NCBI GenBank assembly: GCA_964016885.1
Contig: OZ024755.1
Coordinates: forward strand, 26,040,001-26,104,000
Direction of reading: 5' to 3'
DNA from: Eledone cirrhosa
Taxonomy: Eukaryota
DNA length: 64,000 nucleotides
Below, in pieces: positions 6,323-64,000 of the stretch (position 1 is the first letter of the stretch; every line of letters begins with the position of its first letter). Made by a program: the position numbers and the translations under genes. Below the pieces are notes generated by a model. The model was not told the DNA's origin, did not search any database, and saw only the letters and a list, made by a program, of their open reading frames with translations.

Positions 6323-6382
6323 GTAAGTAGCAATTCCATTACTCAAAGCAATCATTCAATCACGTAAATATAATTCTAATTA

Positions 6383-8336
6383 ATGTCTGTGAATGGGAAG
6401 TTTGTCCATGAAAACAAGACCATCCTGTTCTCAGGCCGTCAGAACGGGACCCACCGAGATGGAGTTGCAATCATCATGGACAGGGCTGCCAGTGGTGCCC
6501 TTGAGGAGTGGACTCCTATCAACGAACGCCTAATGACAGCAAGATTCACCACATCACATGCAAAGGTCACCATAGCTCAGTGCTATGCTCCAACCAACGA
6601 ACATAACGATGATGACAAGGACGCTTTCTACCAGCAACTACAAGATGTTGTCAACAAAACCCCACGTCATGACATCCTGATCATCATGGGAGACATGAAC
6701 GCACAGATCGGGGGAAGCAGGGTTGGCTTTGAACATGTTATTGGCCCCCATGCTTATGGAAACCGCACGGACAATGGAGACAGGTTTGTCCAGTTCTGTG
6801 CCATGAACAATATGAAAATCGGCTCGTCACTATTTGACCACAAGAACATCCACAAGGTCACATGGGCTTCGAACGACCACAGGACCAAGATGCAAATAGA
6901 CCACATTGCAATTGGCCCAAGTTGGAGAACTCCTTGCCTGCAGGACGTCCGAGTCTACCAGGGCGCAGATGTCTGCAGTGACCACTATCTGTCTGTTACC
7001 AAACTTAAAATCAGACTGAGGAAGCAGAAGAAGAAGAAAGCACCCACTACAAGGCGTTTTGACACTACCAAGCTGAAGAACGGTGACACAGAAGCACAGT
7101 TCGAGGCTGCTTTGAGGAACAGATTTGCTGTCCTTGGGGAGTCTGCACCAGGCTTGGTCAATTGGTGGGAGGAAATGAAGAAGACCATGGAAGCTGCAGG
7201 GGAAGAAATCCTGGGCTACAGGAAGTCCCTCAGAGAAGCTTGGGTCAGCGACAACACCTGGCTGATTAATGAAAGGAAAGCCCTACACCAGCGGAGGCAT
7301 GCCACTACCCCAGAGGCCATCAAGGTATATCAGCAGTATGTTGACAAGGAGGTGAAACGCAGCGCCCAAAAGGACAAACGAATGTGGCTTGAGGGTAAGG
7401 GGGAAGCAGCTGCGGCACGCAATGACATGCGCTCTGTGTACCAAATTGCCAAGAAAATCACCGGCAGCTCTAGAGCTAACTCAGGCCCGGTTAAAGCGAA
7501 AGATGGTACGCTGCTTTCCAAGGGTGAAGAAAAGTTAGTCGGATGGGCTGAACATTTCAAGGAAGTCCTCAACCGACCGGAGCCACGTGTGCCAGCAGAC
7601 ACTAAGGAACCTACTAGTTTGTTGCCTATCAATACTGATGACTTCACCGAGAAGGAAGTCCGCATGGCCATCAAAACCCTTAAGAATAACAAGTCACCAG
7701 GTATGGATGGCATTTCTGCTGAAATGCTGAAGTCAGGAGGCGAAAGCATGGTCAAGTAGTGGATGGGCCACTTATGTAATCTTGTGTGGAACACGGGTGA
7801 AGTCCCAGAAGATTGGAGAAACGGAGCGGTTGTCTGTATCCCCAAGAAAGGCAACCTTGCCAATTGTGGCAACTGGAGGGGAGTGACACTTCTCTCCATA
7901 CCAGGGAAGGTCTATTGTCTGGTGATACTGAACCGCATACGTGGCATGGTAGACCGGGAACTGCGAGAACAACAGGCAGGGTTCCGACCAAAACGTTCCT
8001 GTGCAGAGCAGATCTTTACGCTACGCCGCATCATTGAGAGGTCCAACGAATTCCAGAGGCCCCTCGCCATCAGCTTCATCGATTTCTCCAAAGCATTCGA
8101 TAGCATTCATCGACCGTCACTCTGGAGCATCATGCATGAGTATGGTCTGCCCCCAGAAAGTCATTTCGGCAATCAAACAGATTTACGCAAACTCCAAGTG
8201 CTGCATACGGACAGAGGATGGTTACAGTGACTGGTTTGAGGTGGTTACTGGCGTGCGTCAAGGTTGCTCGCTCTCTCCAATTCTCTTTGCCATAGCCATT
8301 GACTGGGTACTAAGAAGAGCATCTAAAGACCAGGGT
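6383..8336 (+). mobile_element. RTE-clade LINE, truncated (AP endonuclease + N-terminal RT)
   Basis: APE motifs (QCYAPT, MGDMNA, IDHI, SDH) and RT motifs (KSPGMDGI, NWRGVTLLS, DFSKAFDS, GVRQGCSLSP); one stop at ~7757 and a frameshift at ~8150. Confidence 0.92.
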
Positions 8337-9394
8337 ATATATTTGGGGAAGGTGTGTTTGGGTGATCCAATAAAATTTGACCTAGAATTATGTTTAACAA
8401 AGTCTTTTCATTGTAATGATATATGAATGGTTGGTGCCATAAGTATTTGTCTGTGAAACATTGCCATAAAAAGGACCTGTGCCAGGAAGGGCATCTGTTT
8501 GTAGGGAAGGACCTGTGCCAGAAAGTGTAGGGTTGAGCCTGTCGTAGGGCCTTCAGAACTAATGGAATGAAACAAAAAATGATATTTACAGCTCACATTT
8601 TTGTAAGTTGAGCTGACATCCTATGAAGCTGGATCTCATAGGTTTCATAGGTGTTTTAATGATAGGGGTCCAAGTTAATGGAAGAAATCTACTGTAATCA
8701 GGCCTGGAAAGGGATGGGCTCCGCCAGGCTTAAAATACCCAAGAAACGCTATATGTCAACACAGCGGCCCTACGACTCTATCAGGAATTACAGGACCATA
8801 CATACATTTAATGTGGCCAGTTATTTACACCACAATACATCTTATTTGACAGCTTATAAGACACACTTTTTTCCAAAAAATGTTCCAGCAAATTACTCTG
8901 CATCTTATAAGGTCAATGGTCAGTTTGGGTTAGTGGCTAGTGGAGTTCTAATGCTGTAGTGACTCTTAAATTACAACGTAAACATCTCTGCCAACAATAA
9001 CAACTTTTTTCTAAGAAAGCTACAATTTTAATAAATTTTATGATGAATAGAATATTTATTTTCACTTTCTTTTGTTTTAAAAATGTACTAAATATTTCAA
9101 CAAAAAATACAATGTAGAAAATAAAGTAAATATATTTTCCCACTTCCTTATGTTTTAAAAATGTACTAAAATATTACAATTAGAATTTTCGATGTAGAAT
9201 GATAAATTAAAAAGTACGATGTACAAACTTTATACCCTTCACCTGATATTCATAGTTTGAACACATTTACATATTTGTTATGCTTGCCCAAATTAAGGTG
9301 TGTTTTATAAACCCTCAAATACGGTATTTATTATGGTCAGTATATTTACTGCAATATTGAAAATAAAATTTATTTTCTGTTTTTACTCTTTCAG

Positions 9395-16152: not shown

Positions 16153-45942
<29,790 letters not shown>

Positions 45943-46909: not shown

Positions 46910-46987
46910 TATTGTTATACTTTGGGAGGGTCATGTTGCCAATAAGTGCGTGTGTTTCTTATTGGCAACATGACCCTCCCAAAGTAT

Positions 46988-46993
<6 letters not shown>
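46910..46993. repeat. Short near-perfect palindrome; same arm family as 50362-50610
   Basis: TTGTTATACTTTGGGAGGGTCATGTTGCCAATAAG...CTTATTGGCAACATGACCCTCCCAAAGTATAACAA. Confidence 0.85.
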
Positions 46994-47045
<52 letters not shown>

Positions 47046-47050
<5 letters not shown>

Positions 47051-47280
47051 ATATTAACAAATGGAAACTATATTTATAAAACCATATTTATTTCATTATA
47101 CATATTTCAAGGACACCAAAGCAAATTATGGTGCGCTTTCATCAGATAAAATATAATATAGATCAGTTTTATAAACAAATGTTGACATACCATAATTTGC
47201 TTTGGTGTCCTTGAAATATGTATAATGAAATAAATATGGTTTTATAAATATAGTTTCCATTTATTTAATATCATTGTGTA
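47046..47280. mobile_element. (TA)n-flanked foldback element (Penelope-like terminal repeat derivative)
   Basis: Arms ~47046-47132 and ~47189-47280 are reverse complements; a hammerhead overlaps one arm. Confidence 0.65.
47089..47153 (-). ncRNA. Minimal type I hammerhead ribozyme
   Basis: TATTTTAT-CTGATGA-AAGCGCACCA..TGGTGTCCTT-GAA-ATATGTAT-A-ATGAAATA; same helix I and core as the 59422 motif. Confidence 0.75.
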
Positions 47281-47289
47281 TATATATAT

Positions 47290-47436
47290 ATTATTTCTGA
47301 AGACGGCATATGTATGTGTTGGTATGTATATTCTATTTGATAGTTTGTATAATTTTGTATAATTTTGTACATAGATCTTTTGAATATGCATGCCAATTCT
47401 AACACATATATGTCCTAGAAACGATCGTTAAATAAT
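47290..47436 (+). ncRNA. Type I hammerhead ribozyme with long helix II insertion
   Basis: ATTATTT-CTGAAGA-[GGCATATGTATGTGTTGG...CTAACACATATATGTC]-GAA-ACGATCGT-T-AAATAAT; palindromic helix III; GUU triplet. Confidence 0.62.
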
Positions 47437-47493
47437 GAACTTTTTTTGTTTAATATAAGGAACTGTTTCATTGTTTTATTCATTATTTTTTTA

Positions 47494-47543
<50 letters not shown>

Positions 47544-47937: not shown

Positions 47938-48345
47938 GGGCTCCGTAAGCTGCAGGGAGGGCAGCCCATCTAGAAGAGCACACACTCCGAACGAATAAGA
48001 TTGCATGAGGTAGACGTGGGTGCACAGTTGTAGGAGGGCTTACCTAGCCATGTGCGAGAACCTCTCGACCATAATCAGGCAATCATCCTTACATTTTCCC
48101 TTTAAGGTACATAGAGATTACCACTGTCAGGTAAAACATCTTATAGCAAACTATTCGGCGTTAAGGGGCTTTTGCGGCTTAAGAAGCTCTGCATAGCTGC
48201 CACTCTCAGTTTAGGCAGAGCCATAGACTAATGAATGAAACTAATAAAAAAAAAAATAATAAAAGATTGTATTCAGCTACGCTATCAAAAGAATGTTGAA
48301 TTAAAATTACATATTAAAAAAGAAACTTAAAAAAAAAAAGCCGAA

Positions 48346-48438
48346 TCTCGCGAGACGGATTCGAACCATCGACCTAAGGATGACAGATATCTATAACACC
48401 ACTACAGTCCTCCGCTCTACCAACTGAGCTATCGCGAG
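48346..48438 (-). tRNA. tRNA-Tyr(GTA) with 20-nt intron
   Basis: CTCGCGATAGCTCAGTTGGTAGAGCGGAGGACTGTAG-[TGGTGTTATAGATATCTGTC]-ATCCTTAGGTCGATGGTTCGAATCCGTCTCGCGAGA; A/B boxes; oligo-T terminator downstream. Confidence 0.96.
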
Positions 48439-48649
48439 AATCTGGAAACGAGCATCTTAATTTATTGTACTATTTCTAGCAGTCAGTCAGAGCTGATCGT
48501 TGGTATTTTGTAAATATGTATATATATATATATGTGTGTATACATATATACAACGTTAAATAGCTTTGATTTGATTTTCTAAAGATTACAATGTATTAAA
48601 ACGTGATTAAAAAATATCAATATATTTATTAATAACCCTATATATATTT

Positions 48650-49945: not shown

Positions 49946-50273
49946 TATATTTTAACGTGATTGTATAGTTAGGAAGTTGTCACTGAGATAACCTGAAGAT
50001 CGAGACAGACACAAACTCATTGAATGGATTTGATCTGCCCGGGGCAACAGCCAGAAAAAACAACAACTCGTGCGCGCACATAAACTGTGACACCGTGCAC
50101 ACACCCATACATACAACATAGAGAGATACTGGTGACGTCCCCTTGACTAGGTGTTCATGAAAGTGTCTGCACACACGCATTTCTATTCTAATGGCCAATT
50201 ATTTTCTCTCAGTTCATCCGAGTTTCGTACCGTTTGTGTTGTTGTTATTTACCTTTTACACATACACACACAT

Positions 50274-50354
50274 ATTGGGTCATCACGTATGAAATTTGTA
50301 GAAATTTGTAGAAAAAAAACAAATTTCTACAAATTTCATACTTGACGACCCTAT
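50274..50354. mobile_element. Tiny Tc1/mariner-like MITE (TIRs only)
   Basis: GGGTCATCACGTATGAAATTTGTAGAAATTTG / CAAATTTCTACAAATTTCATACTTGACGACCC, TA flanks. Confidence 0.55.
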
Positions 50355-50361
50355 ATGTATA

Positions 50362-50610
50362 TATTATACTTTGGGAGGGTCATGCTGCGAATAAAAACAC
50401 ACACATACCTGTTGGTTTTCACTTCTATTTATTATAAATTTCCGGTTGGTTGGTTCAATAACCAGATGGTTGTTTATATATTGTCAAAGCTCTTTCGTCA
50501 CACATTCTGTGACCTCCTCGGTGACTGATTTCTTAAATTGAATTGAAGTGAAAACTAACAGGTGCGTGTGTTTTTATTAGCAGCATGGCCCTCCCCAAGT
50601 ATAACAATAT
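50362..50610. mobile_element. Foldback element with ~65-bp inverted arms and a hammerhead relic in the loop
   Basis: ATACTTTGGGAGGGTCATGCTG...TTTTCACTTC / GAAGTGAAAA...CAGCATGGCCCTCCCCAAGTAT; TA-flanked. Confidence 0.7.
50483..50525 (-). ncRNA. Degenerate hammerhead ribozyme (core CCGAGGA)
   Basis: GTCA-CCGAGGA-G-GTCACA/TGTGAC-GAA-AGAGCT-T-TGAC; one core substitution; lies in the loop of a foldback element. Confidence 0.5.
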
Positions 50611-50779
50611 ATATATAGGAGCAGAAGTTTCTGTAAATCCGTAGAAAACTGGTGAGGGTACCAAAGTCAGCTCTCAATGCTAGAGCAGAGTGTATATAAT
50701 AAGAACAAAGTGGAGGTGTTACATCAATAATTTATTGATCAGTCATGGTTGCAATTGTTTCACAAACCAGCGGCACATA

Positions 50780-51330
50780 ATCCGGGTTAATATTCTGTAT
50801 CTGGGAGCAAAGATTGAGAACACAGAGGATGATGTGGTGGATAGGAAGAGCAAAGCCTGGGCGGTATGTCCATAGTTTGAGGTCGGTGCGGAAGTCGGAC
50901 CTTCGTAAAGACTTGAAGATCCGTCTCTTCGTCGCTACAGTGGAATCTGTGGTGCTGTATGGGTCTGAGACGTGGACACTGAACAACAGACTCACTAAGA
51001 TGGTGGATGGAATGCTGAGGATGGCTCTGAACATTAATCTGTATACACTGAGAATGAAGAACTCAGATCTGTACGGGAGCCTCCCAAATGTCAGCTCGAA
51101 AGTGACACACAGGAGACTGAGGTTCGCTGGATATGCTCACCGGCATTCAGAGTTGACACTACACTCAGTGGTCCTGTGGGAGCCCCTGCACGGACACACT
51201 TGAAGAGGGAGACCGAGTATGACATATATTGATGCCCTAAGGAAAGACACTGGTCTCTGGGAGACGTAGGACATGGCAGCTATGATGAAGGACAGAGACC
51301 GGTGGAGAGAACTCGTCCATGGATCTTTTA
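50780..51330 (+). mobile_element. RTE LINE 3' fragment
   Basis: LKIRLFVATVESVVLYGSETW...RRLRFAGYAHRH. Confidence 0.8.
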
Positions 51331-51589
51331 CCATGGAATTTTACCCGCCCTATATATATATATGCATAAATATATACATACATACACACACACACACATA
51401 CATATATTTATATATATATGTAATTTGTAATATTTTTTACATAGATCTCTAACATGATATACATACCAACACACACACATATATCCCAGAAACGATCGTA
51501 AAATGATGAATTTTTCAATATAAGGAACCTGTTCTTTGTTTTTATTAATTTATATATATATATATATGAGAAAACTCATCGTTAAAACA

Positions 51590-51780
51590 GCAAAATGCCG
51601 CAGAACAGGAAGATGGACATGCCGTCTGGCCATTTGCTGTCCCCTCGATCCAACACCGCCGGCTCTAGCTCGAGGAGGAAGCTTGCAGCATCCAAGCCAT
51701 GCTTTATGATCTCGTTGAGAGCAGCCATGGAGTTGGAGGCAGCCGGCATTGTGGCGACAGGACAACTCATCTACGAAATC
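51590..51780 (-). mobile_element. CRE/R2-like (RLE) non-LTR retrotransposon 3' fragment
   Basis: ALNEIIKHGL...LELEP..LDRGDSKWPDGMSIF, a restriction-like endonuclease motif. Confidence 0.7.
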
Positions 51781-51955
51781 GACGGAGCAACCACACCACC
51801 ACTAGCACTACCACCACCTGCTATTGCTACTCCCACTACCACATACACACAGTATGACATGTGCCTCCCCTTCTCCCTCTCACTATAGCAATCATCAGCA
51901 ACAACCACTTCACATTTCTTATGACTAAAGTACTTTAGAGCCTGTCAGCATGTAT

Positions 51956-52048
51956 CTCGCGATAGCTCAGTTGGTAGAGCGGAGGACTGTAGTGGTATTA
52001 TTTCTCTCTGTTATCCTTAGGTCGATGGTTCGAATCCGTCTCGCGAGA
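51956..52048 (+). tRNA. tRNA-Tyr(GTA) with 20-nt intron
   Basis: Same exons; intron TGGTATTATTTCTCTCTGTT; poly-T terminator. Confidence 0.96.
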
Positions 52049-52700
52049 TGGCTGATTTTTTTTTTTTTTTTTTTATTGATTTTTTTTTTTTTCTATTTCT
52101 AAATATTCTTCCATATTGCCTTGCGGATATTTCAGCAGTGCAATGATCAAAGACATTCCAGCCGTGACCATCTCGTCTTTCTATTCAGATTGTGTCTAGA
52201 ACAAATTCTTCCATATTGTCTTTCGGATATTTCAGCAGAGCAATGATCAAAGACATTCCAGCCGTGACCATCTCGTCTCTCTTCTTCCAGTTCTCCCAAA
52301 GTGAGACCAGCCAAGCTATCCAGCCATCTTGTTCGGGGTCTACCGGTTGGTTTTTGCCTGTAAAATTTGTCCAGTGATTCTTTCCTGAGACATTCTAACC
52401 ACACGCCCATAGTATCGGAGCTGTGATTTCTCAATTCGGAGAAGTAGCGGCGGCTCTACCTGGAGTGACTCTCTGATCTCCCAGCAAAATATGTGTATTC
52501 ATTTTGATGAAAATAAATAAATGATAGTCGATCAGCACTATAACAATTGGAATTTACATCCGACCAATCATCTCACTGTGTCTTTCTTTTTGGATGTAAT
52601 GGTCCTTTTGAGCTCTTTGTTCTACACAATATATTAAAAAATGATATAGTCACTGCTGAAAAGTGTTTGATTGCTGGTCGGCTGAAACATGCAACTATGT

Positions 52701-52731
<31 letters not shown>

Positions 52732-52772
52732 TTAGGTAAAAAAAACTAAAATAAAAAAAAAAAAAAGAGCCA

Positions 52773-52863
52773 TCTCGCGAGACGGATTCGAACCATCGAC
52801 CTAAGGATAACAGAGAATTAACGCCACTACAGTCCTCCGCTCTACCAACTGAGCTATCGCGAG
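52773..52863 (-). tRNA. tRNA-Tyr(GTA) with 18-nt intron
   Basis: Same exons; intron TGGCGTTAATTCTCTGTT; poly-T terminator. Confidence 0.96.
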
Positions 52864-53774
52864 ATACATGATGACACGCTGGAAAATACTTTAATCATAA
52901 GAAATGTGAAGTGGTAGCTGCTGCTGCTGATTTTTATAGTGAGAGGGGAAGATGTATATTATAATGTGGGAGTAGCAATAGCGAACGGACTGAGAGAGGT
53001 GAACGACTTACTGTGTGAGTGGTAATGGGAGTAGCATTAACAGAGAGAGTGACGGAGGTGTATAACTTATTGTGTGAGTGGTAGTGGGAGTAACATTTAA
53101 CACTGCTGACGTCATTTTTGTGTGTATCTACTTCATTCTGTGTCTTTATGAGTGTGTCTTTCTATGTAAATGTGGATGTATCTATGTGTTTCTATTTCCT
53201 ATATATACGTGTATCAATGTCTGTGTATATGTACCAGTGACTGTGTGTGTATACTTGTATCAGTGTCTGTTTATGTCGATTCTTCGAAAATTAGATCGAT
53301 AAAATATGTAGCAAACTTGAAAAAGAGCCAATATAATCGATTAAATCTCTTCAATGATTGAAACCAGCAAAAAAAAAAAAAACTGCCCCAGCATGGCAAC
53401 TGTGTAAAAAGAGTGTGGTGCCCCAGCATGGTCATAGGCAAATGACAAAAACCAGTAAAAGAATAGTGATCCAGCATGGCCGCTGTCTAATGATGACTGT
53501 AACTAGTAGAATAACTGTTCCAGTATGGCCGGTGTCTAATAATGACAAACTATTAAAAAAATAGTGCTCCAGCATGGCCAGAGTCTAATGACTGAAACCA
53601 GTAAAAGAACGGTGCTCCAAAATGACTGTACCACTGAAATATTACATAAAGTAGTCCTAGATAAACAATCTGAATAAAGAGATGAGATGGTCATGGCTGG
53701 AATGTCCTTGAATGAAATAAGTGAAAGACTACATAAAAATATTTGAAAATAGAAACAATAAAAAAAAATAGCCA

Positions 53775-53867
53775 TCTCGCGAGACGGATTCGAACCATCG
53801 ACCTAAGGATAACAGAAAGAATTAACACCACTACAGTCCTCCGCTCTACCAACTGAGCTATCGCGAG
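53775..53867 (-). tRNA. tRNA-Tyr(GTA) with 20-nt intron
   Basis: Same exons; intron TGGTGTTAATTCTTTCTGTT; poly-T terminator. Confidence 0.96.
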
Positions 53868-54239
53868 ATACATAACAATTCGCTCTAAAATACTTTAGTC
53901 ATAAGAAATGTGAAGTGATAGCTGCTGCTGATGATAGTTGTAGTGAGAGTGAGAGCTGTATATCTTACTGTGAGAGTAGTAAATACAGAAAGAGAAAGAG
54001 TGGGAGAGATTTATGGCTTGTCGTGTGAGTGGTGATTGTTTTATTTGTTTTTTAATTCTTTTTCTAGGACTTCTGATATTTTCTTTGAAAGCAAAGTTTT
54101 TGCATTGGCCTCCAAAGTACTACCGTGGGCCACAAGTCAAGCTGACGACATGGCCAGTCCACCACTGCTTAAGGTGTTACCTACTTTCAGCGAGAGCAAT
54201 ATTCTCGGGGGATTGGGTTGACCATGACCAACATCGGTT

Positions 54240-54930
54240 GCCTACTCAGTCTGGATGAGCTCTGTATCGCCATTAGACTCTGAGTGGGAGCCGATGTCTA
54301 CGGGGGATTGAAATGTCGCTGTGGTAGGCCCTATGATACCACAGATCTTCATGGCCTGAATGCAGGTCGCCTCGCTCGTCATACCGAGCTAAACTGCGCA
54401 TCGAGGCTTCCCTCAGGCTTGGCCTCTAGATCTGCGAGCCACACAAATATTGCTGCAGATCCATTGTAGGCTCTTTCGGCCTCCACCCTATTTCCTGTGG
54501 CTACAGTGTCGGCCGGCTTCCACACTATGCTGCTTTCAACGAGGTCATGAAACATGGCTTGAATGCTGAAGACCCCCACCACCACCACCACCACCACCAC
54601 CACCACCAGCTCGTGCCGATGGGGTTGAACTAAGGGGACGGCAAAAGGCCAGACGGCATGACCATCTTCCCGTTCCGCGATGGTAAACCCCTCGTCTGGG
54701 ATGCCACTTGCAGCGATACATTCTACAGCGGCACACCTGCTGCACTTCGGGCTGAGAAGGGTAAACTCCAAATATTGGTCGAGCCCGTAGCAGTGGAAAC
54801 TTCTGGTGTCCTTGGCCCTAGGGGCCACCTGCCTACTCACCACCATCGGCGCAGAACTGGTTAGCCGCAGGTGTGAGCCTCACGAACGGGAATGGCTCCT
54901 CCAGCGCATCTTCCGGAGAAACGCCTGCTG
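54240..54930 (+). mobile_element. CRE/R2-like (RLE) non-LTR fragments (two adjacent pieces)
   Basis: CRCG...HGL...RH.ELN zinc knuckle and RPDGMTIFPFRDGKPLVWDATCSDT...VAVETSG. Confidence 0.75.
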
Positions 54931-55518
54931 CTCTATTATGTTCGCCGGAGTGGCCAGTGCGTGGGACCCCCATTTCCTCATAATAATGAGAAATGGGGAG
55001 GGCGGGAGATGCGGAGGCGATGGCAGTGGGAGTTTGGTTCCTTTGTATTCAGACCTGGTGTACATGTGTATGTAATTTTACTTCGTATTTAATAAGTTCT
55101 TACATAAAATGATACTTTAAGATCACTGCTTATCACGTGGTCAATTCTGATTTTGAATATGAATCTGTCATAGCTGCGAAACGTGTATATACACATGGAT
55201 ATAGGAACGATGCTGTTCCAGACGAAGCATAAAGGACTAATAAGGAAATACCAAAAACTCTTCAAAGAAGACTTCAAAAGTACTTAACTATTAACCATCA
55301 TATATGGTGACCGTATCGCAATCCGCCACCTGCGACCCGTTCTCTACCAAGAATCAGCTGAAGTAACTTTTTTAAATAATCTGTTTAAAATATACTTAAT
55401 TCATGGGATTAAATATAGTTTTGGGTGTCAATAAACCCTGGAAAAGCCAAATATAGCTCCTACCGGATAACAAATAATGTAAGTATTTAAAAATTAAAAA
55501 AAGAAAATAATAACGAAA

Positions 55519-55610
55519 TCTCGCGAGACGGATTCGAACCATCGACCTAAGGATAACAACTGTTAATTGACCACTACAGTCCTCCGCTCTACCAACTGAG
55601 CTATCGCGAG
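55519..55610 (-). tRNA. tRNA-Tyr(GTA) with 19-nt intron
   Basis: Same exons; intron TGGTCAATTAACAGTTGTT; T-run downstream. Confidence 0.96.
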
Positions 55611-55929
55611 ACAGTTGGTTACTGTGTGTTAAATACATTAATGATTGGAAGTTAAAAATACAGCTGATTGTTATAGTGTAATGGAGAGTGAGGAGAGGAA
55701 AGGGGAGAAAGAGTGGGGCGGGGAGTAAGAGGAGAATAAGTAGTAAGTTAGGAGAGGAGGAGAGGAGTTTATGTGTGTTAAGTTGGATGTATCTTCATTT
55801 TAATTTACGAATAAGTTGCTATGCATTCATAGACACAGATACTCACGCTAAGAGTATTGCAATCGTTTGTCAAAATATAGCTTTTCAAGCCTGTTACAGA
55901 CTTGCACTCCTTCGCTCATTGACGACAAC

Positions 55930-56480
55930 CATGGATCTCCCTGGCATCAAGTCTTGCATCAGATTACCTGTTAACCTTCACATGCCGCTTCAGTCCTGCT
56001 ACAGATCGACATTCCTTGTCACATTCATTACATTTTGCAATACCGTAGAGTTCATAGTTCACTGGTTTTCCCTGAACATGGCTACAACTGTGGCTCTTGA
56101 GCCCAGATTTGCTCAAGCACACCTTTCCACACTCAGGACACACCAATCCAATGAAGACACCGATCGTTTCGAGAGATACACCACGGCATTTCTTACGCAT
56201 ATTCCGTTTGATCTTCTCGTGCTCTATGCGTATGTCCTAAAAATGTATGGACCCTATCATTCACCATTCCACGCCAAGTTTCTCTTTTAAGAGCTTTTAT
56301 CTCCCAGTCAGGCATCATTAAACCGATTTTTTACAATGAGTTCTTTACATAATCTTTGAATCGGAGTTTTGGCTTGTAAGGTGGTCTTTTACCTTTACAA
56401 AGCTCGCCATACAAAAGCTGTTTCGGGATTCCATCATCCTCCATTCTGGAGAGGTGTACGATCCATCCATTGGTGGATGA
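55930..56480 (-). mobile_element. LINE 3' fragment with C2H2 zinc fingers
   Basis: HLSRMEDDGIPKQLLYGEL..GKR...PKLRFKD, then CPECGKVCLSKSGLKSH and CNECDKECRSVAGLKRH. Confidence 0.75.
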
Positions 56481-56739
56481 ACATACAAACATACACAAAC
56501 ACACACAGATACATATATACACAAAAAACACACACATTCGCACATACATATACATATAGACTCAGATACATACATACACACAAACACACACATAGATACA
56601 TACATATACACACATTCATGGGAGCATAGGGTAATACCATCTGGCCTATCCCTTCGTTAAGTTATGTTTCAAACATCAACTTAATCAGAATGTTAATTAC
56701 TTTACTAAATCCATCTAAATTCTTGATTATTTTCAAAAT

Positions 56740-57060
56740 TGTAGTGTCTTTCGTCAGAACAATGGTGATGAAAGGATTAAAGACATAGGCAGCGTTTTTC
56801 ATTAGAAATATGGGAATCAAAAGATTAAAACCATAGGCAGTGTCTTTCATTAGAAATATGGGAATCAAAAGATTAAAACCATAGGCAGTATCTTCCATTA
56901 GAAATATGGGAATCAAAAGATTAAAACCATAGGCAGTATCTTTCATTAGAAATATGGGAATCAAAAGATTAAAACCATAGGCAGTATCTTTCATTAGAAA
57001 TATGGGAATCAAAAGATTAAAACCATAGGCAGTGTCTTTCATTAGAAATATGGGAATGAA
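56740..57060. repeat. 48-bp minisatellite (dispersed relatives at ~2050, ~35480, ~41450)
   Basis: AAAGATTAAAACCATAGGCAGT(G/A)TCTTTCATTAGAAATATGGGAATCA, ~6 copies. Confidence 0.9.
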
Positions 57061-57412
57061 AGAGTTTGACATAAGCAGTGACTTTCTCTCATAACTCAAG
57101 ATACGAAGACCTATCTTTCCTACAGCTTTGCTATTTTATTTTTTAGATAGTTATCTCCCTTGCATAATTTATAATGTCAGTATCAGTAGAGGGTAGGATA
57201 ACATGCTTTGAGGTATACAGTTACGACCCTTTACGTTCTGTGTTCAAATCCTGCCAAAATAAATGTGCATAAGGGAAAGCGGCTCTTCTGCAGTACAGCA
57301 TAACGCCAGAGATCTCAATCATCATGAGTCATCTCCTTTATATATATAATTATTATTATTATTATTATCACTATTTGTACAAATATGCAACTTAACAATA
57401 TTCTGCATATCC

Positions 57413-57450
57413 GCAATTGACAATGCATATAATGCTGAAACCGGTATTGT
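57413..57450 (+). ncRNA. Degenerate hammerhead ribozyme relic
   Basis: GCAA-TTGACAA-T-GCAT/ATGC-T-GAA-ACCGGT-A-TTGT; helices intact, core has two transitions. Confidence 0.4.
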
Positions 57451-57668
57451 AAATAAATTTAATATTTTGCATATCATCGACATTGCTATTCCGCTGTTAA
57501 TAAACAACGCTTTTCACGTCGCTCCACTTCTCATTGTACGCCGTCCAGCGCCAAGTACATATTTCTATTTTTCCTGAAACTGGTTCTTTATAATAAACTT
57601 TCAATAATATTTTTCAAATTATTAACTTAATAAAAAATGGCCCCGGGTGCAACCGGGCTCAGCTGCTA

Positions 57669-57742
<74 letters not shown>

Positions 57743-58779
57743 AATGAATAATAACAGGTAGACATCATAAAAAGGTAATTTATTCCGTGTGCTTACAAAT
57801 GTTTCCACGGTGGTACTACAGCCTAGTTATGCTACGTGCAAATTTACAACTATTTGCAGAACTCAAATATCCAATGCTGTGACCACTGTATCCTCAGAGA
57901 AGAATGCACATAGCATAACTAGGCTGTAGTACCACCGTGGAAACATTTGTAACCACACGGAATAAATTACCTTTTTATGATGTCTACCTGTTATTATTCA
58001 TTCTTTATATACACTCCGGAATACAGAAGGATCAGGAACTAAGTTTCTTCAACAATTCTTCCATAACTCGTAGAGTAACCTCTCACCGTACGTCAACCAT
58101 ATCCAGTGTAGTAATTAACCATTACTACATCTAGGATACTGAGGTTGAGTTATTTTATTTTTATCTGGCTGCCTATTGATAAACACAGAAAAACTTGATT
58201 AACTCACTGCTAATTAGATAATTATTTTACTATTATACCATCCTTTGTGAAACATGTTTGAAGTTTGAAGTTCTGACCGATCTGCGGAAAAAGTTTGTAT
58301 TTTGAATTTTAAACGTGTCTAGGTACCAAGGCTTTTTGCCCATATGAGTCTGTGAGTATTGATTTATTATTTTCTAGATCGTACAGGCAGACCTTATGTT
58401 GTTGAATTAAGATTTTTCACTCTAGCGATCTTATTAGTCAATTGCAACTATAACATGTAAATGTTCATCAAATATTAATTTATACTGCTTAGAAGCGATT
58501 CCTAGAGCTGAAATGATTGTAAATGACCTCTCTGAGTCTAAACTCTAAGCTATTTATTTATATATATATATATATATTTATTAAAATACCAGATTAAAGT
58601 TTAAGCAAATAATCGCTGCTTTCACCCTTAACGGGATCTTCTGAAATAACGGTTTTTATATATAATCCTTATCGAAGCCACTTCGGATTTTGGTCATCAC
58701 ATTTTTTATTATTACTATATATATATATATGTGTGTGTGTGTAAATAATCCGAGGCCATATTCATTTGGTTCAGGTTTA

Positions 58780-58837
58780 CCGTCTGAGGAGCTCTGGCTG
58801 TCATAACTAATAGTCCTCAGCGAAATATATATAACGG
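58780..58837 (+). ncRNA. Minimal type I hammerhead ribozyme
   Basis: CCGT-CTGAGGA-GCT...AGC-GAA-A-TATATA-T-A-ACGG: helix I CCGT/ACGG, full core, helix II, palindromic helix III, AUA cleavage triplet. Confidence 0.8.
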
Positions 58838-58990
58838 ATTTAATAAACCTGAACCAAATGAATATGGCCTCGGGGGTTTTATTGATATATAATGCTCCGC
58901 CCTGCACTTTTATACAGGTCGTTGAGCGCTTTCTTTTAACTACTTCGCAACCCACAGACCATTACGTGGTCCACACTATAGGTTGACCCC

Positions 58991-59049
<59 letters not shown>

Positions 59050-59142
59050 GGGATTCGAAACCGATCGGTAAAGGTAACTATAGTAGGTAAAGTCAATTTT
59101 TTAAAATTTATTTTGAAACTTTTTCATTATTTACTAAACCTT

Positions 59143-59173
<31 letters not shown>

Positions 59174-59421
59174 ATGTAGGAGGTGAGTTTTATTGTAGCA
59201 CAATCAAGCAATGCAAATATCGGATAAGTAGCACTCAACAGTTTATAAGACTGGAGTATAAATAATATAAAATCAAAAGATGGTTAAAAGAGTTTCATGT
59301 ATTTTATTATGCGCATTTCAAAAACAAATATCATCATGGGATAATATTTGCGTTCTCAACATATGTTGATTTAACACTTCACTGCTCGTAAGTGTTTTTT
59401 AAGTTTCATATCATGTCTCTC

Positions 59422-59492
59422 TATTTTATCTGATGAGAACGCAAATATCATCCCATGATGATATTTGTTTTTGAAATGCGCATAATAAAATA
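59422..59492 (+). ncRNA. Minimal type I hammerhead ribozyme
   Basis: TATTTTAT-CTGATGA-[CAAATATCATC/GATGATATTTG stem]-GAA-ATGCGCAT-A-ATAAAATA: 8-bp helix I, palindromic helix III ATGCGCAT, AUA site. Confidence 0.8.
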
Positions 59493-59616
59493 CATGAAAC
59501 TCTTTTAACCATCTTTTGATTTTATATTATTTATACTCCAGTCTTATAAACTGTTGAGTGCTACTTATCCGATATTTGCATTGCTTTATTGTGCTACAAT
59601 AAAACTCACCTCCTAC

Positions 59617-59661
<45 letters not shown>

Positions 59662-59817
59662 TAAGGGGTCAACCTATAGTGTGGACCACGTAATGGTCTG
59701 TGGGTTGCGAAGTAGTTAAAAGAAAGCGCTCAACGACCTGTATAAAAGTGCAGGGCGGAGCATTATATATCAATAAAATCCCCGAGGCCATATTCATTTG
59801 GTTCAGGTTTATTAAAT

Positions 59818-59875
59818 CCGTTATATATATTTCGCTGAGGACTATTAGTTATGACAGCCAGAGCTCCTCAGACGG
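59818..59875 (-). ncRNA. Minimal type I hammerhead ribozyme (inverted copy of 58780-58837)
   Basis: Reverse complement of the 58780 motif, in the right arm of the palindrome. Confidence 0.8.
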
Positions 59876-59912
59876 TAAACCTGAACCAAATGAATATGGC
59901 CTCGGATTATTT

Positions 59913-59970
<58 letters not shown>

Positions 59971-60714
59971 ATAATAAAAAATGTGATGACCAAAATCCGA
60001 AGAGGCTTCGATAAGGATTATATATAAAAACCGTTATTTCAGAAGATCCCGTTAAGGGTGAAAGCAGCGATTATTTGCTTAAACTTTAATCTGGTATTTT
60101 AATAAATATATATATATATATTAGGTATAGGATTATCCTAGATGTAGTAATGGTTAATTACTACACTGGATATGGTTGACGTACGGTGAGAGGTTACTCT
60201 ACGAGTTATGGAAGAATTGTTGAAGAAACTTAGTTCCTGATCCTTCTGTATTCCGGAGTGTATATAAAGAATGAATAATAACAGGTAGACATCATAAAAA
60301 GGTAATTTATTCCGTGTGGTTACAAATGTTTCCACGGTGGTACTACAGCCTAGTTATGCTATGTGCATTCTTCTCTGAGGATACAGTGGTCACAGCATTG
60401 GATATTTGAGTTCTGCAAATAGTTGTAAATTTACATTGCCTTTGTCAGTGTTGAACAAAAGGGCAACGATGGTTGCTAAACACTGTACGGCTTAATTCGG
60501 GATGTTTGTTTACAAACAAACCGAGCATTATAATAAATGTTCGGTAAATCCATACGTACATATATATATATGTGTGCATGTATGTATATATATATACATA
60601 CTACTGTACGTCTGTATACATATATGTATGTACGTATACATACTTATATTTAAGTAACAGCCGTACTAAGAGTGAGAAATGAAATTTCGTTTCATTTTTT
60701 CCACACACACACAC

Positions 60715-60764
<50 letters not shown>

Positions 60765-60802
60765 CAAATAGTTTTATCGCTCTACATGGCTGAATACAAT
60801 AA

Positions 60803-61376
60803 ATGTAATCTGAGCTTTTCGAATATTAATAATAATATTCGGTTCGTTTGCAATTATGCAAACAGCCTCTTTAAACCATGTTAGTAGAATAACCTCATCT
60901 TTCTTGCTCTTGTTATTTCTGCGAGGTCGCCCAACCGAGTACTAGCTGCTTCTGTTGTTAGGATTTCACTTTCACTTGTTCACATTACATCTATGATTTT
61001 ATTTCGTTTTGCGACCATTGACTTTGTATTAAACAACAACATATTAATATTTATTTTTAATCTAATTCGGAGAAGGTCAAAATCTACACGCCTTAAAGAG
61101 GCTGTTTGCATAATTGCGAACGAATCGAATATTACTAATATTCGAAAAAGGGTTTGGCAGTATCGATAGAGGGTTGAACGCCATGCTTTGAGGCATAGAA
61201 TTATGGCCTTTTATGATCTGAGTTCAAATCCCGCAGAGGTTAACTTTACCTTTACAGGGTCGATAAAATAAAATACCAGTCACTCACTGGGATCGATTTA
61301 ATCGACTTTTCCCTCCCCCAAAATTGCTGGCTTTGTGCCTATATAAGAAACCATTATTAATATTCGAAAGGCTCAG

Positions 61377-61382
<6 letters not shown>
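60803..61382. mobile_element. Foldback element with ~70-bp arms; right arm split by a SINE-B insertion
   Basis: Left arm ATGTAATCTGAGC..TTCGAATATT..CAAACAGCCTCTTTAA; right arm resumes after the SINE, with ATTA(C/T)TAATATTCGAAA duplicated on both sides of it. Confidence 0.7.
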
Positions 61383-61438
<56 letters not shown>

Positions 61439-62228
61439 AAGAGGGAGATCCGTGGTGATGCAACACTCTGGCCATCCAGATTAAGCCGATGTAGTTCAAC
61501 TATCAAATTTATTTCAAGCCAATTCTAAAATGTCTTTAAAATAAACTCTGGAAACATTTTGTAGCTGGAGTCTTTATTTTCCACTTCTTTCTTGGCAACA
61601 TCTGCAATAATATTGGTACGAAGCGACTGAGAGTACAAGACTCCCTTTTGGACAGGATGTCAATTCATTGCAGGTTTAAACCTCCAGCTATTGCTGTTGG
61701 TACTCATTTTCAGCTGCGTGTACTGGAACAATATGAAATGAAGTGTTTTGTTCAAGAACACAACACACAACCCAAACCAGGAATCGAACCCACGATATTA
61801 TGATTGTAAGTCCAACACCCTTGCCACCAGGCCACGCGTCTCCACTTTCAATGTAGAAAAGCAGCAGTGAAAACAACGCCTTCATCAAAATAAGACAGAA
61901 TGGTCACGTCTGTTCAACAGCAATCCTCAAATGCAGTTGAGGTAACTGAGACCAACATACGCATGTAGGGTCTCTACAACCACTGGTCACCCAAATAACG
62001 GAAAATAAGACATTCTTGTTTTTAAATTGCAGATTAAATTGTCACACGAGAAAAAAGAATGCTGTCGACAATACTTTGCAAGGACGATAACTCTTATTTC
62101 AAGTAAACGTCAATACCACTAGACAGTGTTGTTGTCAATTGAACATCTATATATATAGATATATCTGAAGGAGTGCTGAGATTCAAAATACATTTTACGA
62201 AGTTGGTTATTTACCTAGTTGTGATCTG

Positions 62229-62363
62229 ATGTATACTATAACTAAAGTTGTTTTCTTTTGTATGTTGATATGTTGTTTACTATCATTTTGTTTTGCTGCA
62301 ACGTCCTGTCCATGTTTCAAGCCAGCGCTATGTGATGTTGTAAAGAATTCTGAACGCAATGAG
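62229..62363 (+). CDS. CTBS: Di-N-acetylchitobiase-like gene, exon 1 (signal peptide + CPC..PALC motif)
   Basis: MYTITKVVFFCMLICCLLSFCFAATSCPCFKPALCDVVKNSERNE then GTAAAT donor; resembles the chitobiase N-terminus CPCPEPELC...E. The rest of the gene lies beyond the window. Confidence 0.72.
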
Positions 62364-63059
62364 GTAAATATACTAAGACTAAATAATTGTTTCTACTTTA
62401 GGCGCAATGCATGCAATTACGCAGGTGCTTTAGTGGTGCTTTATTTTATCGACCCCGATAAAATAAAGCAAAGCTATCCTCGGCTGCATTTGAACTCAGA
62501 ACTTAAGGGGCAATTAAATTACATAGATGTTGTTTAACCCCAGATCACTCCTTGGTTGGGAAGATCTATGACCAAAGGCGCTTCATCCTGTCCCATTTCC
62601 AACTTTTTGTAAACCTAGGACTTCACTGACTAATGTGTTCTTCCTTTTTCGTTAAAACGAAGTTAATTTTGTTTTTTTAAACAACAACATATCAATATTT
62701 ATTTTTAATCTAATTCGAAGAGGGTCAAAATCTATCAAGAAAAAAATGAACAACAAAAATAATAAAAAAATTTTTGTGTGTTTTTGTTGCAGAGTTTTTG
62801 TTTTGATCTCTCTTCGGATTTGTAGACAAAACACAAAAAGGACTTGTTTTATTTTACGTAGATTTGGCCGTTATCTATTCAAATTAATCGTTTGAAATAC
62901 CAGACATCGCTGAGTGGTTAAGGAGTTCATTTCACAACCATCTTGTTCCGGGCTCTGTATTGCTGCACAGCACTTTGAGCAAGTACCCCGAAAGGGCTCT
63001 GGAAATAACCAGTTAAATAAGGTACTCAATACGTTAGTTGAGAATACCCGTGGCCAACG

Positions 63060-63520
63060 TTGATGGCCTACTCAGCCTGGACGAGCTTCGTGTCTTCATC
63101 GCCCTCAGGGTGGGAGCTAAAGTCTGCATGGGTTTGAGGTGCCGATGCGACAAAATCCTCGACTCCACGGTTTTTCTTGCCGCCTGAATGGCGGCCGCTT
63201 CGCGCTCACACGGAGCTAAACCTCATTCTGAAGAGAGCTTTGCCTGGGCGAATATCCCCTCAGTCTTGGAAGCATCTGGTTTGTCCAGAAGTGACGGCAA
63301 AAGACCTGACGGTCTTACCCTGTGCCCCTGGTCGAGAGGCAGGTGCCTTGTCTGGGACGTCACCGTTAGTGACTCTTTTGCTCTTTCCCCCTGGATGCTG
63401 CGGTTAGGACGAGAGCCACAGCTTCCGCAGCCGAGCGGAGTAAGACCCTCAAATACTCTGATCTGTCGGCGAGCTACATTTTTCAGCGCATCAGCCGAGG
63501 CAACGCTGCGAGTGTGCATA
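63060..63520 (+). mobile_element. CRE/R2-like (RLE) non-LTR fragment
   Basis: [39 protein letters not shown]. Confidence 0.8.
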
Positions 63521-63944
63521 TGGTGGCTGGTACAAACACTACACTTGTGACAATTATTGACACATAGTGCTGGGCCCATGCCACCATGTGACGACAAGTG
63601 CAGAGAGATCTCCAGATATAAAGCAGTGCCTGTGCCGTGAAGCTTTTATAGTGAGCAAAGGCACTGCACAAAGCCAGTCCCACTCTCTTAACCAAGATGA
63701 TATTTACCAAAAAGAAGAACAAGTCAACATCATTGGATACCACCAGGGTTGCAGGTGTTATATCAGAGTTTTCCTTCTAGAATTCTGCCTTGACAAGGCT
63801 AAGGGGTCATCTCTCCCGGTGATTTTGGATATATATATATATACACATATATATATATATACACACATATATATACACATATATATATATATATATATGT
63901 GTGTATATATATATACACATATATACATATATATACATACATAT

Positions 63945-64000
<56 letters not shown>

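Follow-up and report, generated by a model that had tools for sequence, protein, structure and literature searches.

An interrupted palindrome of about 2.7-2.8 kb, centered near 59396, occupies positions 57734-60431 of a 64,000-nucleotide stretch of Eledone cirrhosa DNA (contig OZ024755.1, positions 26,040,001-26,104,000 of the forward strand; this whole stretch is referred to as the window, and coordinates are counted from its first letter). On balance, we favor the view that the locus is a cluster of stubs flanked by (TA)n, likely truncated terminal repeats of Penelope-like elements (PLEs), that was later mirrored by a single fold-back duplication at the DNA level centered on one of its modules, module C. 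At least three of the stubs in the cluster carry hammerhead ribozyme sequence. Rather than a new RNA system, the locus is probably common repeat debris of a kind already described; it provides a new example of PLE-type hammerhead stubs with inverted copies that have been secondarily duplicated.

An inverted duplication of (TA)n-separated modules centered near 59396 had been noticed in an original prediction made from the sequence, and it is real at that level. Its exact arms (57841-59358 and 59434-60431) flank a unique 75-nt spacer (59359-59433, + strand), which consists of family sequence upstream of the hammerhead in module C. Outward from this center, both arms run in the same order: C, (TA)n, B, (CA)n(TA)n, D, (TA)n, E, A, and the A loop. 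In the left arm these are represented by C' (59173-59358, - strand), an inverted copy of C whose truncation falls inside the hammerhead core; module B (58750-58992, + strand), made up of a 30-bp inverted copy, a 64-nt loop bearing a hammerhead (HH1), and a 3' body that runs to (TA)n; D (58575-58715), which lies between (TA)n tracts; and the A/E block (57841-58138), comprising a 64-nt loop, the A arm, and E. The right arm contains the body of C (59434-59618, + strand), which belongs to a dispersed family of very high copy number and ends at (TA)n, followed by the mirror copies of B (59663-59915, - strand), D (59968-60108), and the A/E block with its loop, duplicated unchanged at 60134-60431. 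Aligned without gaps, the arms differ at 2 of 186 positions in C, 1 of 253 in B, 1 of 141 in D, and 0 of 298 in E/A (4 of 878 in total), with one additional change beside a TA tract and unequal microsatellite lengths. This low and even divergence over unrelated modules points to one event.

The palindrome is asymmetric in several respects. X (approximately 59046-59145, + strand) and Y (58139-58560, about 420 bp and single copy in the window) are present in the left arm only. X is a 5'-truncated stub with (TA)n on both sides that retains the 3' half of a hammerhead only (GAAA, a palindromic helix III, and TA). At the place of Y, the right arm carries a 12-nt filler (60122-60133) composed of short inverted copies of the adjacent end of E which, judged by known end-joining patterns, may be a product of snap-back repair. 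The outer end of the left arm is a 107-bp fold-back that abuts (TA)n; this segment, A' (57734-57840, - strand), is an inverted copy of module A with 2 mismatches relative to 57905-58011. It differs from both other A copies at 2 of 107 positions while those two are identical to each other, a weak hint that the A hairpin predates the large palindrome. The right arm quits the mirror exactly at the fold point of A, within a 12-bp palindrome, and continues into F (60432-60548), a unique, hairpin-rich segment of 117 bp followed by a TA/CA-rich tract; the sequence past 60431 does not match the left flank. The C junction sits in a 14-bp palindrome. These two junction palindromes were counted without a shuffle control, and short palindromes are common in AT-rich DNA. 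F may be either the original flank or upstream sequence of the A family, and the predicted folding of the A loop and F (z scores of -2.9 and -3.2) is compatible with F lying inside or outside A. F also contains three small near-perfect hairpins, and a 33-amino-acid frame across it that includes a DKG-like tripeptide had no Pfam match. The idea that A, B, and C share a loop of 63-64 nt was dropped, as the spacer of C is 75 nt and that of another hairpin near 47 kb is 56 nt. At 57637-57669, close to the outer (TA)n tract on its left side, a GC-rich hairpin is followed by CTAG, an arrangement that may represent a Helitron-like 3' end.

A generic descriptor of the minimal type I hammerhead matched four places in the window, with cores at 58784(+), 59430(+), 59871(-), and 47145(-), and had no match in any of 200 block-wise dinucleotide shuffles; by the same descriptor, A, D, E, F, and Y contain no hammerhead. 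The palindrome had been predicted to hold three intact hammerheads. All three lie where they had been placed, with complete core letters, but 59871(-), in the mirror copy of B (HH3, identical in sequence to HH1), is the mirror duplicate of 58784(+), so that only two distinct motifs are present, and their folding is predicted to be blocked (see below). HH1 (58780-58837, + strand), in the loop of B, has a helix I of 4 bp, the core CUGAGGA, and the helix III palindrome TATATA, with a predicted cut after 58833. HH2 (59422-59492, + strand), in module C, has a helix I of 8 bp, a long helix II, and the helix III palindrome TGCGCA, with a predicted cut after 59484. Both the palindromic helices III and the two cut sites agree with those first proposed. 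In searches with covariance models, which had been suggested as a check, HH2 was the top match of Rfam Hammerhead_1 (RF00163) at 17.9 bits (E = 0.043), below the gathering threshold of 34, and HH1 was not listed in that search. An Rfam scan of 50000-64000 likewise reported no hammerhead, only tRNAs and low-complexity microRNA matches; the Hammerhead_1 model represents a long helix II poorly. The CUGAGGA box of HH1 has a perfect 7-nt complement in the 3' strand of its own helix II (58784-58820), which could be a built-in lock, or else a chance match or a relic of fold-back. The modules containing HH1 and HH2 are not detectably related (their best local match, 9 nt, is at chance level), and exact-pattern scans for the HH2-type motif found none in metagenome, viral, or prokaryote genome contigs.

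PLEs usually carry an inverted, 5'-truncated copy at their 5' end, a tail on one side, and an insertion bias toward (TA)n, according to the passages of PMC8557442 that describe them, which call the mechanism generating the inverted copies undefined. The part of PMC3846280 that deals with this step hypothesizes self-priming, on the evidence of palindromes where copies join in inverted orientation, and also reports that host DNA can be captured. The locus shows several of these traits. The hammerheads are, as had been proposed, of the minimal kind described for PLEs: all four descriptor matches are type I, with a palindromic helix III. An inverted 5'-truncated copy at the 5' end is found in B, in C, in a hairpin at 47046-47280, and at five joints in other copies of the C family; module A has the same arm-loop-arm shape and is kept apart from this count, as it could read in either direction. 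The 14-bp palindrome lies at the inverted junction of C, and 5' truncation with a (TA)n target is seen in a fall of depth toward the 5' end of the C family and in its loose ends at TATATA. In line with these findings, truncated PLE insertions with an inverted copy of the pseudo-long terminal repeat, as portrayed in the sections of PMC8557442 and PMC3846280 devoted to them, have an inverted truncated 5' copy, a junction palindrome, a variable tail-like 3' end, 5' truncation, a (TA)n target, and a terminal-repeat hammerhead; the present locus differs from them in lacking an open reading frame (ORF) and in being a pile of several families that was then block-duplicated. The minimal hammerheads treated in the corresponding sections of PMC4209133 are also type I, with a short palindromic helix III and a long helix II, and also occur as many families per genome, mostly as single motifs; thousands per genome are reported there and ascribed probably to truncated PLEs, and dual motifs on opposite strands 100-700 bp apart are already described in Schistosoma. 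The present motifs differ from these in the G-U pair of HH2 at 10.1-11.1 (G-C and A-U also occur in its family) and in the 7-nt complement of HH1 to its own core.

The locus contains no reverse transcriptase (RT) ORF, in agreement with the original prediction: the longest stop-to-stop frame is 106 amino acids, five locus ORFs had no Pfam match, and no PLE domain was found by Pfam among 15 ORFs chosen from the window. A canonical endonuclease-containing (EN+) PLE has a single ORF with RT and GIY-YIG domains, and none is present here; two broken long interspersed nuclear element (LINE) ORFs in the window, at 6380-8426 (APE and RT) and 38228-39232 (RT and a PHD finger), are neither GIY-YIG nor PLE-type. 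Because no RT/GIY-YIG ORF is present or linked, we do not file the stubs as PLEs proper, but by analogy they are likely to work like truncated PLE terminal repeats. The suggestion of a single undescribed system spanning the locus is not supported, since C is a dispersed repeat and a fold-back anatomy flanked by (TA)n has been published for PLEs.

Similar stubs occur elsewhere in the window. The hairpin at 47046-47280 has the form (TA)n-arm-loop-arm-(TA)n and contains a complete minimal hammerhead (core at 47145, - strand) that shares helix I and the core with HH2 and whose helices II and III are different yet paired. Next to it, 47290-47499 contains a hammerhead motif with its core at 47297, a helix I of 8 bp, a helix II region of 114 nt, and the helix III palindrome CGATCG; a truncated relative (at 51489) lies within 51424-51550, and both end in (TA)n. 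The hairpins at 46910-46994 and 50350-50619 belong to one family and have different fold points, with loops of 11 and about 95 nt; both end at (TA)n, and no hammerhead was seen in either. Overall, the 3' ends of B, X, C, the 47-kb hairpin, and these other stubs lie within 3 nt of (TA)n, while about 4% of random positions fall within 25 nt of such a tract. The stub boundaries in this comparison were set by eye or by BLAST; 4 of the 14 rows (the A arm and three other hairpins) have no TA on the right, and module B also has none until its extension is included. The window as a whole is rich in microsatellites and LINE fragments.

Module C, the one module type compared with sequencing runs, belongs to an abundant family. 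We compared 59359-59618 with 4 of 10 listed runs, carrying two organism labels, at 85% likeness, and obtained matches in 3,018 contigs of run X1, 231 of X4, 23 of X5, and 4,955 reads of X8, mostly 90-99% alike; X5, like X6 and X7, contains a small share of the sequence words. Between the body and the 5' end, summed depth in X1, which is not a copy number, drops about a hundredfold. The family extends further upstream, as seen from loose ends before 59360, and the C copy in the palindrome is therefore 5' truncated. At the 3' side, loose ends at 59522, 59527, 59535, and 59616 coincide with (TA)n and form two zones (59522-59535 and about 59616) some 85-90 nt apart, compared with the optional 3' tail of 30-40 bp reported for PLEs. 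Five of the seven C-family joints listed connect opposite strands (59361-59522, 59361-59587, 59365-59485, 59422-59465, and 59451-59546), and three of these five begin at 59361-59365; each is represented by one or two read starts or by a single contig, and for three the position is close to an edge of the reference. These joints show that other copies of the family also fold back, at other points. The hammerhead holds 11 of the 40 variants listed (of 61 in total). Among those listed, all seven in helix II keep its pairing, and the others comprise two in a loop, one at the free N7 position, and one that breaks helix III (mainly in X8); none of the 40 touches the conserved core letters. This pattern fits a family with a conserved ribozyme fold. 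The two C arms of the palindrome carry the same letter at all 10 tested positions where a different letter is frequent or almost universal in the family (near-fixed in X1 at three of them). Together with the presence of only two differences between the arms, these shared private letters suggest that one arm was copied from the other after this copy had aged, unless they are subfamily letters.

These data suggest a route in three steps, of which the anatomy of the first is visible in the stubs. A PLE RT would prime at nicked (TA)n and stop early, and the new strand would snap back and copy itself, generating an arm-loop-arm stub; in this way several families (A, B, X, and C) may have been inserted at one TA-rich spot. 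A break or stalled fork beside C could then have allowed a strand to fold on the C arms and copy about 1.3 kb (B, D, E, and A), after which copying would have left its template at the hairpin loop of A and rejoined the flank. Finally, Y may have been lost from the right arm with snap-back filler, and X either added to the left arm or removed from the right one. The portion of PMC7999016 concerned with large palindromes describes how they can form by fold-back priming when a short inverted repeat lies close to a break. The palindromes described there resemble the present one in being large inverted duplications with a spacer between preexisting short arms; they differ in that the event here would have been local (about 1.3 kb) and would have rejoined the flank without forming a palindromic chromosome, and in that the initiating break here is inferred.

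Several observations weigh against this account. The PLE origin rests on anatomy, as no RT/GIY-YIG ORF is linked to any module, and the evidence for dispersal is limited to module C. The joints listed do not include the junction of this particular copy (59359 to 59434). The remaining 21 C-family variants lie outside the listing, and a transition will often leave a G-U pair in place by chance; the shared private letters of the C arms may instead distinguish a subfamily or reflect a difference between species, as the highest share of the sequence words in any run is 0.42. The account is drawn from the occupied allele. The hammerhead of the anole PLE PAc cleaves only with its protein (PMC11167929), so that predictions from naked RNA can mislead. 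Lastly, the stop of the right arm at the fold point of A and its run into F would be explained equally well by a single RT insertion.

This last point leads to the most serious alternative, which accepts PLE-type stubs but derives the whole 2.8-kb palindrome from one retrotransposition; we consider it possible but rather unlikely. Read-through RNA covering C and its neighbors through F would have been copied, folded at the 5' end of C, extended into the second arm, refolded at A, and joined to (TA)n. Such an event would account for the head-to-head arrangement about the 5' end of C with a microsatellite at both outer ends, for the extension F at one end, which is like a PLE tail, and for the termination of the right arm exactly at the fold point of A. 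Host DNA capture, read-through template jumps, and self-priming are moreover proposed for PLEs in the relevant passages of PMC3846280. In contrast, the C-family ends at 59522-59616 imply that copying normally begins inside C and excludes the downstream flank, and internal initiation is described in PMC11167929. In addition, the divergence of A' slightly exceeds that of the arms (2/107 versus 4/878, a weak indication), and the loss of Y would still require a second, DNA-level event. Between the two, we favor the DNA-level fold-back, as the more probable origin, over one retrotransposition.

An origin of the palindrome as a chimera of the assembly or of reads, such as two haplotypes joined via the C hairpin, appears improbable. 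The 0.46% divergence of the arms and the two presence/absence blocks do resemble allelic differences, PLE inversions are said to trouble assemblies in the part of PMC8557442 that discusses them, and no read spanning the locus was seen. However, the mirror stops at 60431 and continues into sequence unlike the left flank, small palindromes or filler mark both breakpoints and the Y junction, the window contains no N, and a fold-back read would give identical arms without blocks of 100 and 420 bp. The mirror ending in unrelated flank and the large-block differences between the arms thus disfavor an artifact.

We give equally little credence to a reading of the modules as solo retrozyme monomers or another non-PLE ribozyme repeat, such as fold-back elements resembling miniature inverted-repeat transposable elements (MITEs). 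No coding partner is in view, and solo retrozyme monomers are common according to the portion of bioRxiv 10.64898/2026.07.22.740005 that surveys them. Metazoan non-LTR retrozymes, as characterized in the pertinent sections of PMC7229834 and bioRxiv 10.64898/2026.07.22.740005, are likewise non-coding and low in GC, with a type I hammerhead and a length of a few hundred nucleotides. They are, however, head-to-tail units with the same ribozyme, whereas the locus is inverted and its same-strand ribozymes are unrelated. A retrozyme is recognized by at least two head-to-tail units with the same hammerhead and by expression as linear and circular monomeric RNA, and neither B nor C is directly repeated; indeed, no module shows a head-to-tail repeat. 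The fold points vary among copies, unlike fixed terminal inverted repeats, and the C family extends upstream of this copy. The line between PLEs and retrozymes is in any case thin, as the passages of the same preprint that consider retrozyme origins argue for descent from PLE terminal repeats.

In the original prediction, cleavage of a + strand transcript near 58833 and 59484 would release a possibly circularizable RNA of about 650 nt bounded by two ribozymes; taken further, this model would have the RNA circularize and be mobilized again. The two cores are indeed complete, on the same strand, and 651 nt apart. In the RNA 58834-59500, however, the helices of HH2 are predicted to pair with the antisense arm made earlier, and its active fold would cost 69.9 kcal/mol. 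The core of HH1 is predicted to be sequestered by the internal 7-nt complement (3.3-4.9 kcal/mol), the cost rising to 102.7 kcal/mol with the mirror arm included. Isolated HH2 is itself predicted to lie 3.1 kcal/mol from an active-like fold, so that small gaps are not decisive; one of 70 kcal/mol is. Because the helix III palindromes of HH1 and HH2 differ, the usual dimer between them is impossible; cofolding of dimers gave no clean active dimers, a result that was not used. For minimal PLE hammerheads, the experiments in the relevant part of PMC4209133 gave no cleavage by monomers and low cleavage by dimers. Consequently, although RtcB can join such ends regardless of family, as stated in the section of PMC7229834 on ligation, a 650-nt unit is very improbable, its ribozymes being unrelated and predicted to misfold, and C-family copies ending in (TA)n and beginning from upstream sequence other than module B. 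Arranged as they are here, the ribozymes should, by these predictions, be inactive. In a read-through transcript of the full locus, a predicted 88% or so of the bases are paired; the proposal that it folds into long double-stranded RNA (dsRNA) therefore stands if the locus is transcribed, and such dsRNA would likely be the only consequence at the RNA level.

The remainder of the window contains several other features. Four near-identical, intron-bearing tRNA genes lie in both orientations at 51955-55611 (59 bits in Rfam) and are most likely tRNA-Tyr genes, though ARAGORN calls them Leu or unknown; ARAGORN makes a fifth tRNA call at 48345-48439. A 48-bp tandem minisatellite occupies 56743-57078, with dispersed relatives near 2100, 35500, 41450, and 44750. 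On the - strand, 28792-38210 contains exon-like ORFs of a host gene, the first exon lying about 20 kb from the locus; they have no Pfam match and appear to resemble TTC27.

In the literature, we found no description of such a locus or of these families in cephalopods; Repbase and Dfam, subscription journals, and supplements were outside this scope, and the families may be cataloged there. The lead most worth pursuing is a possible fixed launch site for fold-back in a very abundant family, which bears on the mechanism of PLE inverted copies, undefined in the account given in PMC8557442 and hypothesized to involve self-priming in that of PMC3846280. The hexamer CATATG at 59360-59365 is the launch point in this copy and in three of the five other joints. 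It is conceivable, if rather doubtful, that very high-copy non-coding hammerhead elements insert as self-primed hairpins from this fixed mini-palindrome and that the 2.8-kb palindrome is one retrotransposition product carrying the stubs of several families. If so, the genome would contain thousands of frozen second-strand intermediates of the undefined fold-back step of PLEs, and each such copy would silence its own ribozyme and seed dsRNA. More generally, a hairpin stub within a TA tract is probably able to seed a palindrome of kilobase size. In a cephalopod host with heavy adenosine-to-inosine editing of its RNA, it would be of interest that such stubs, if transcribed, provide plentiful dsRNA.

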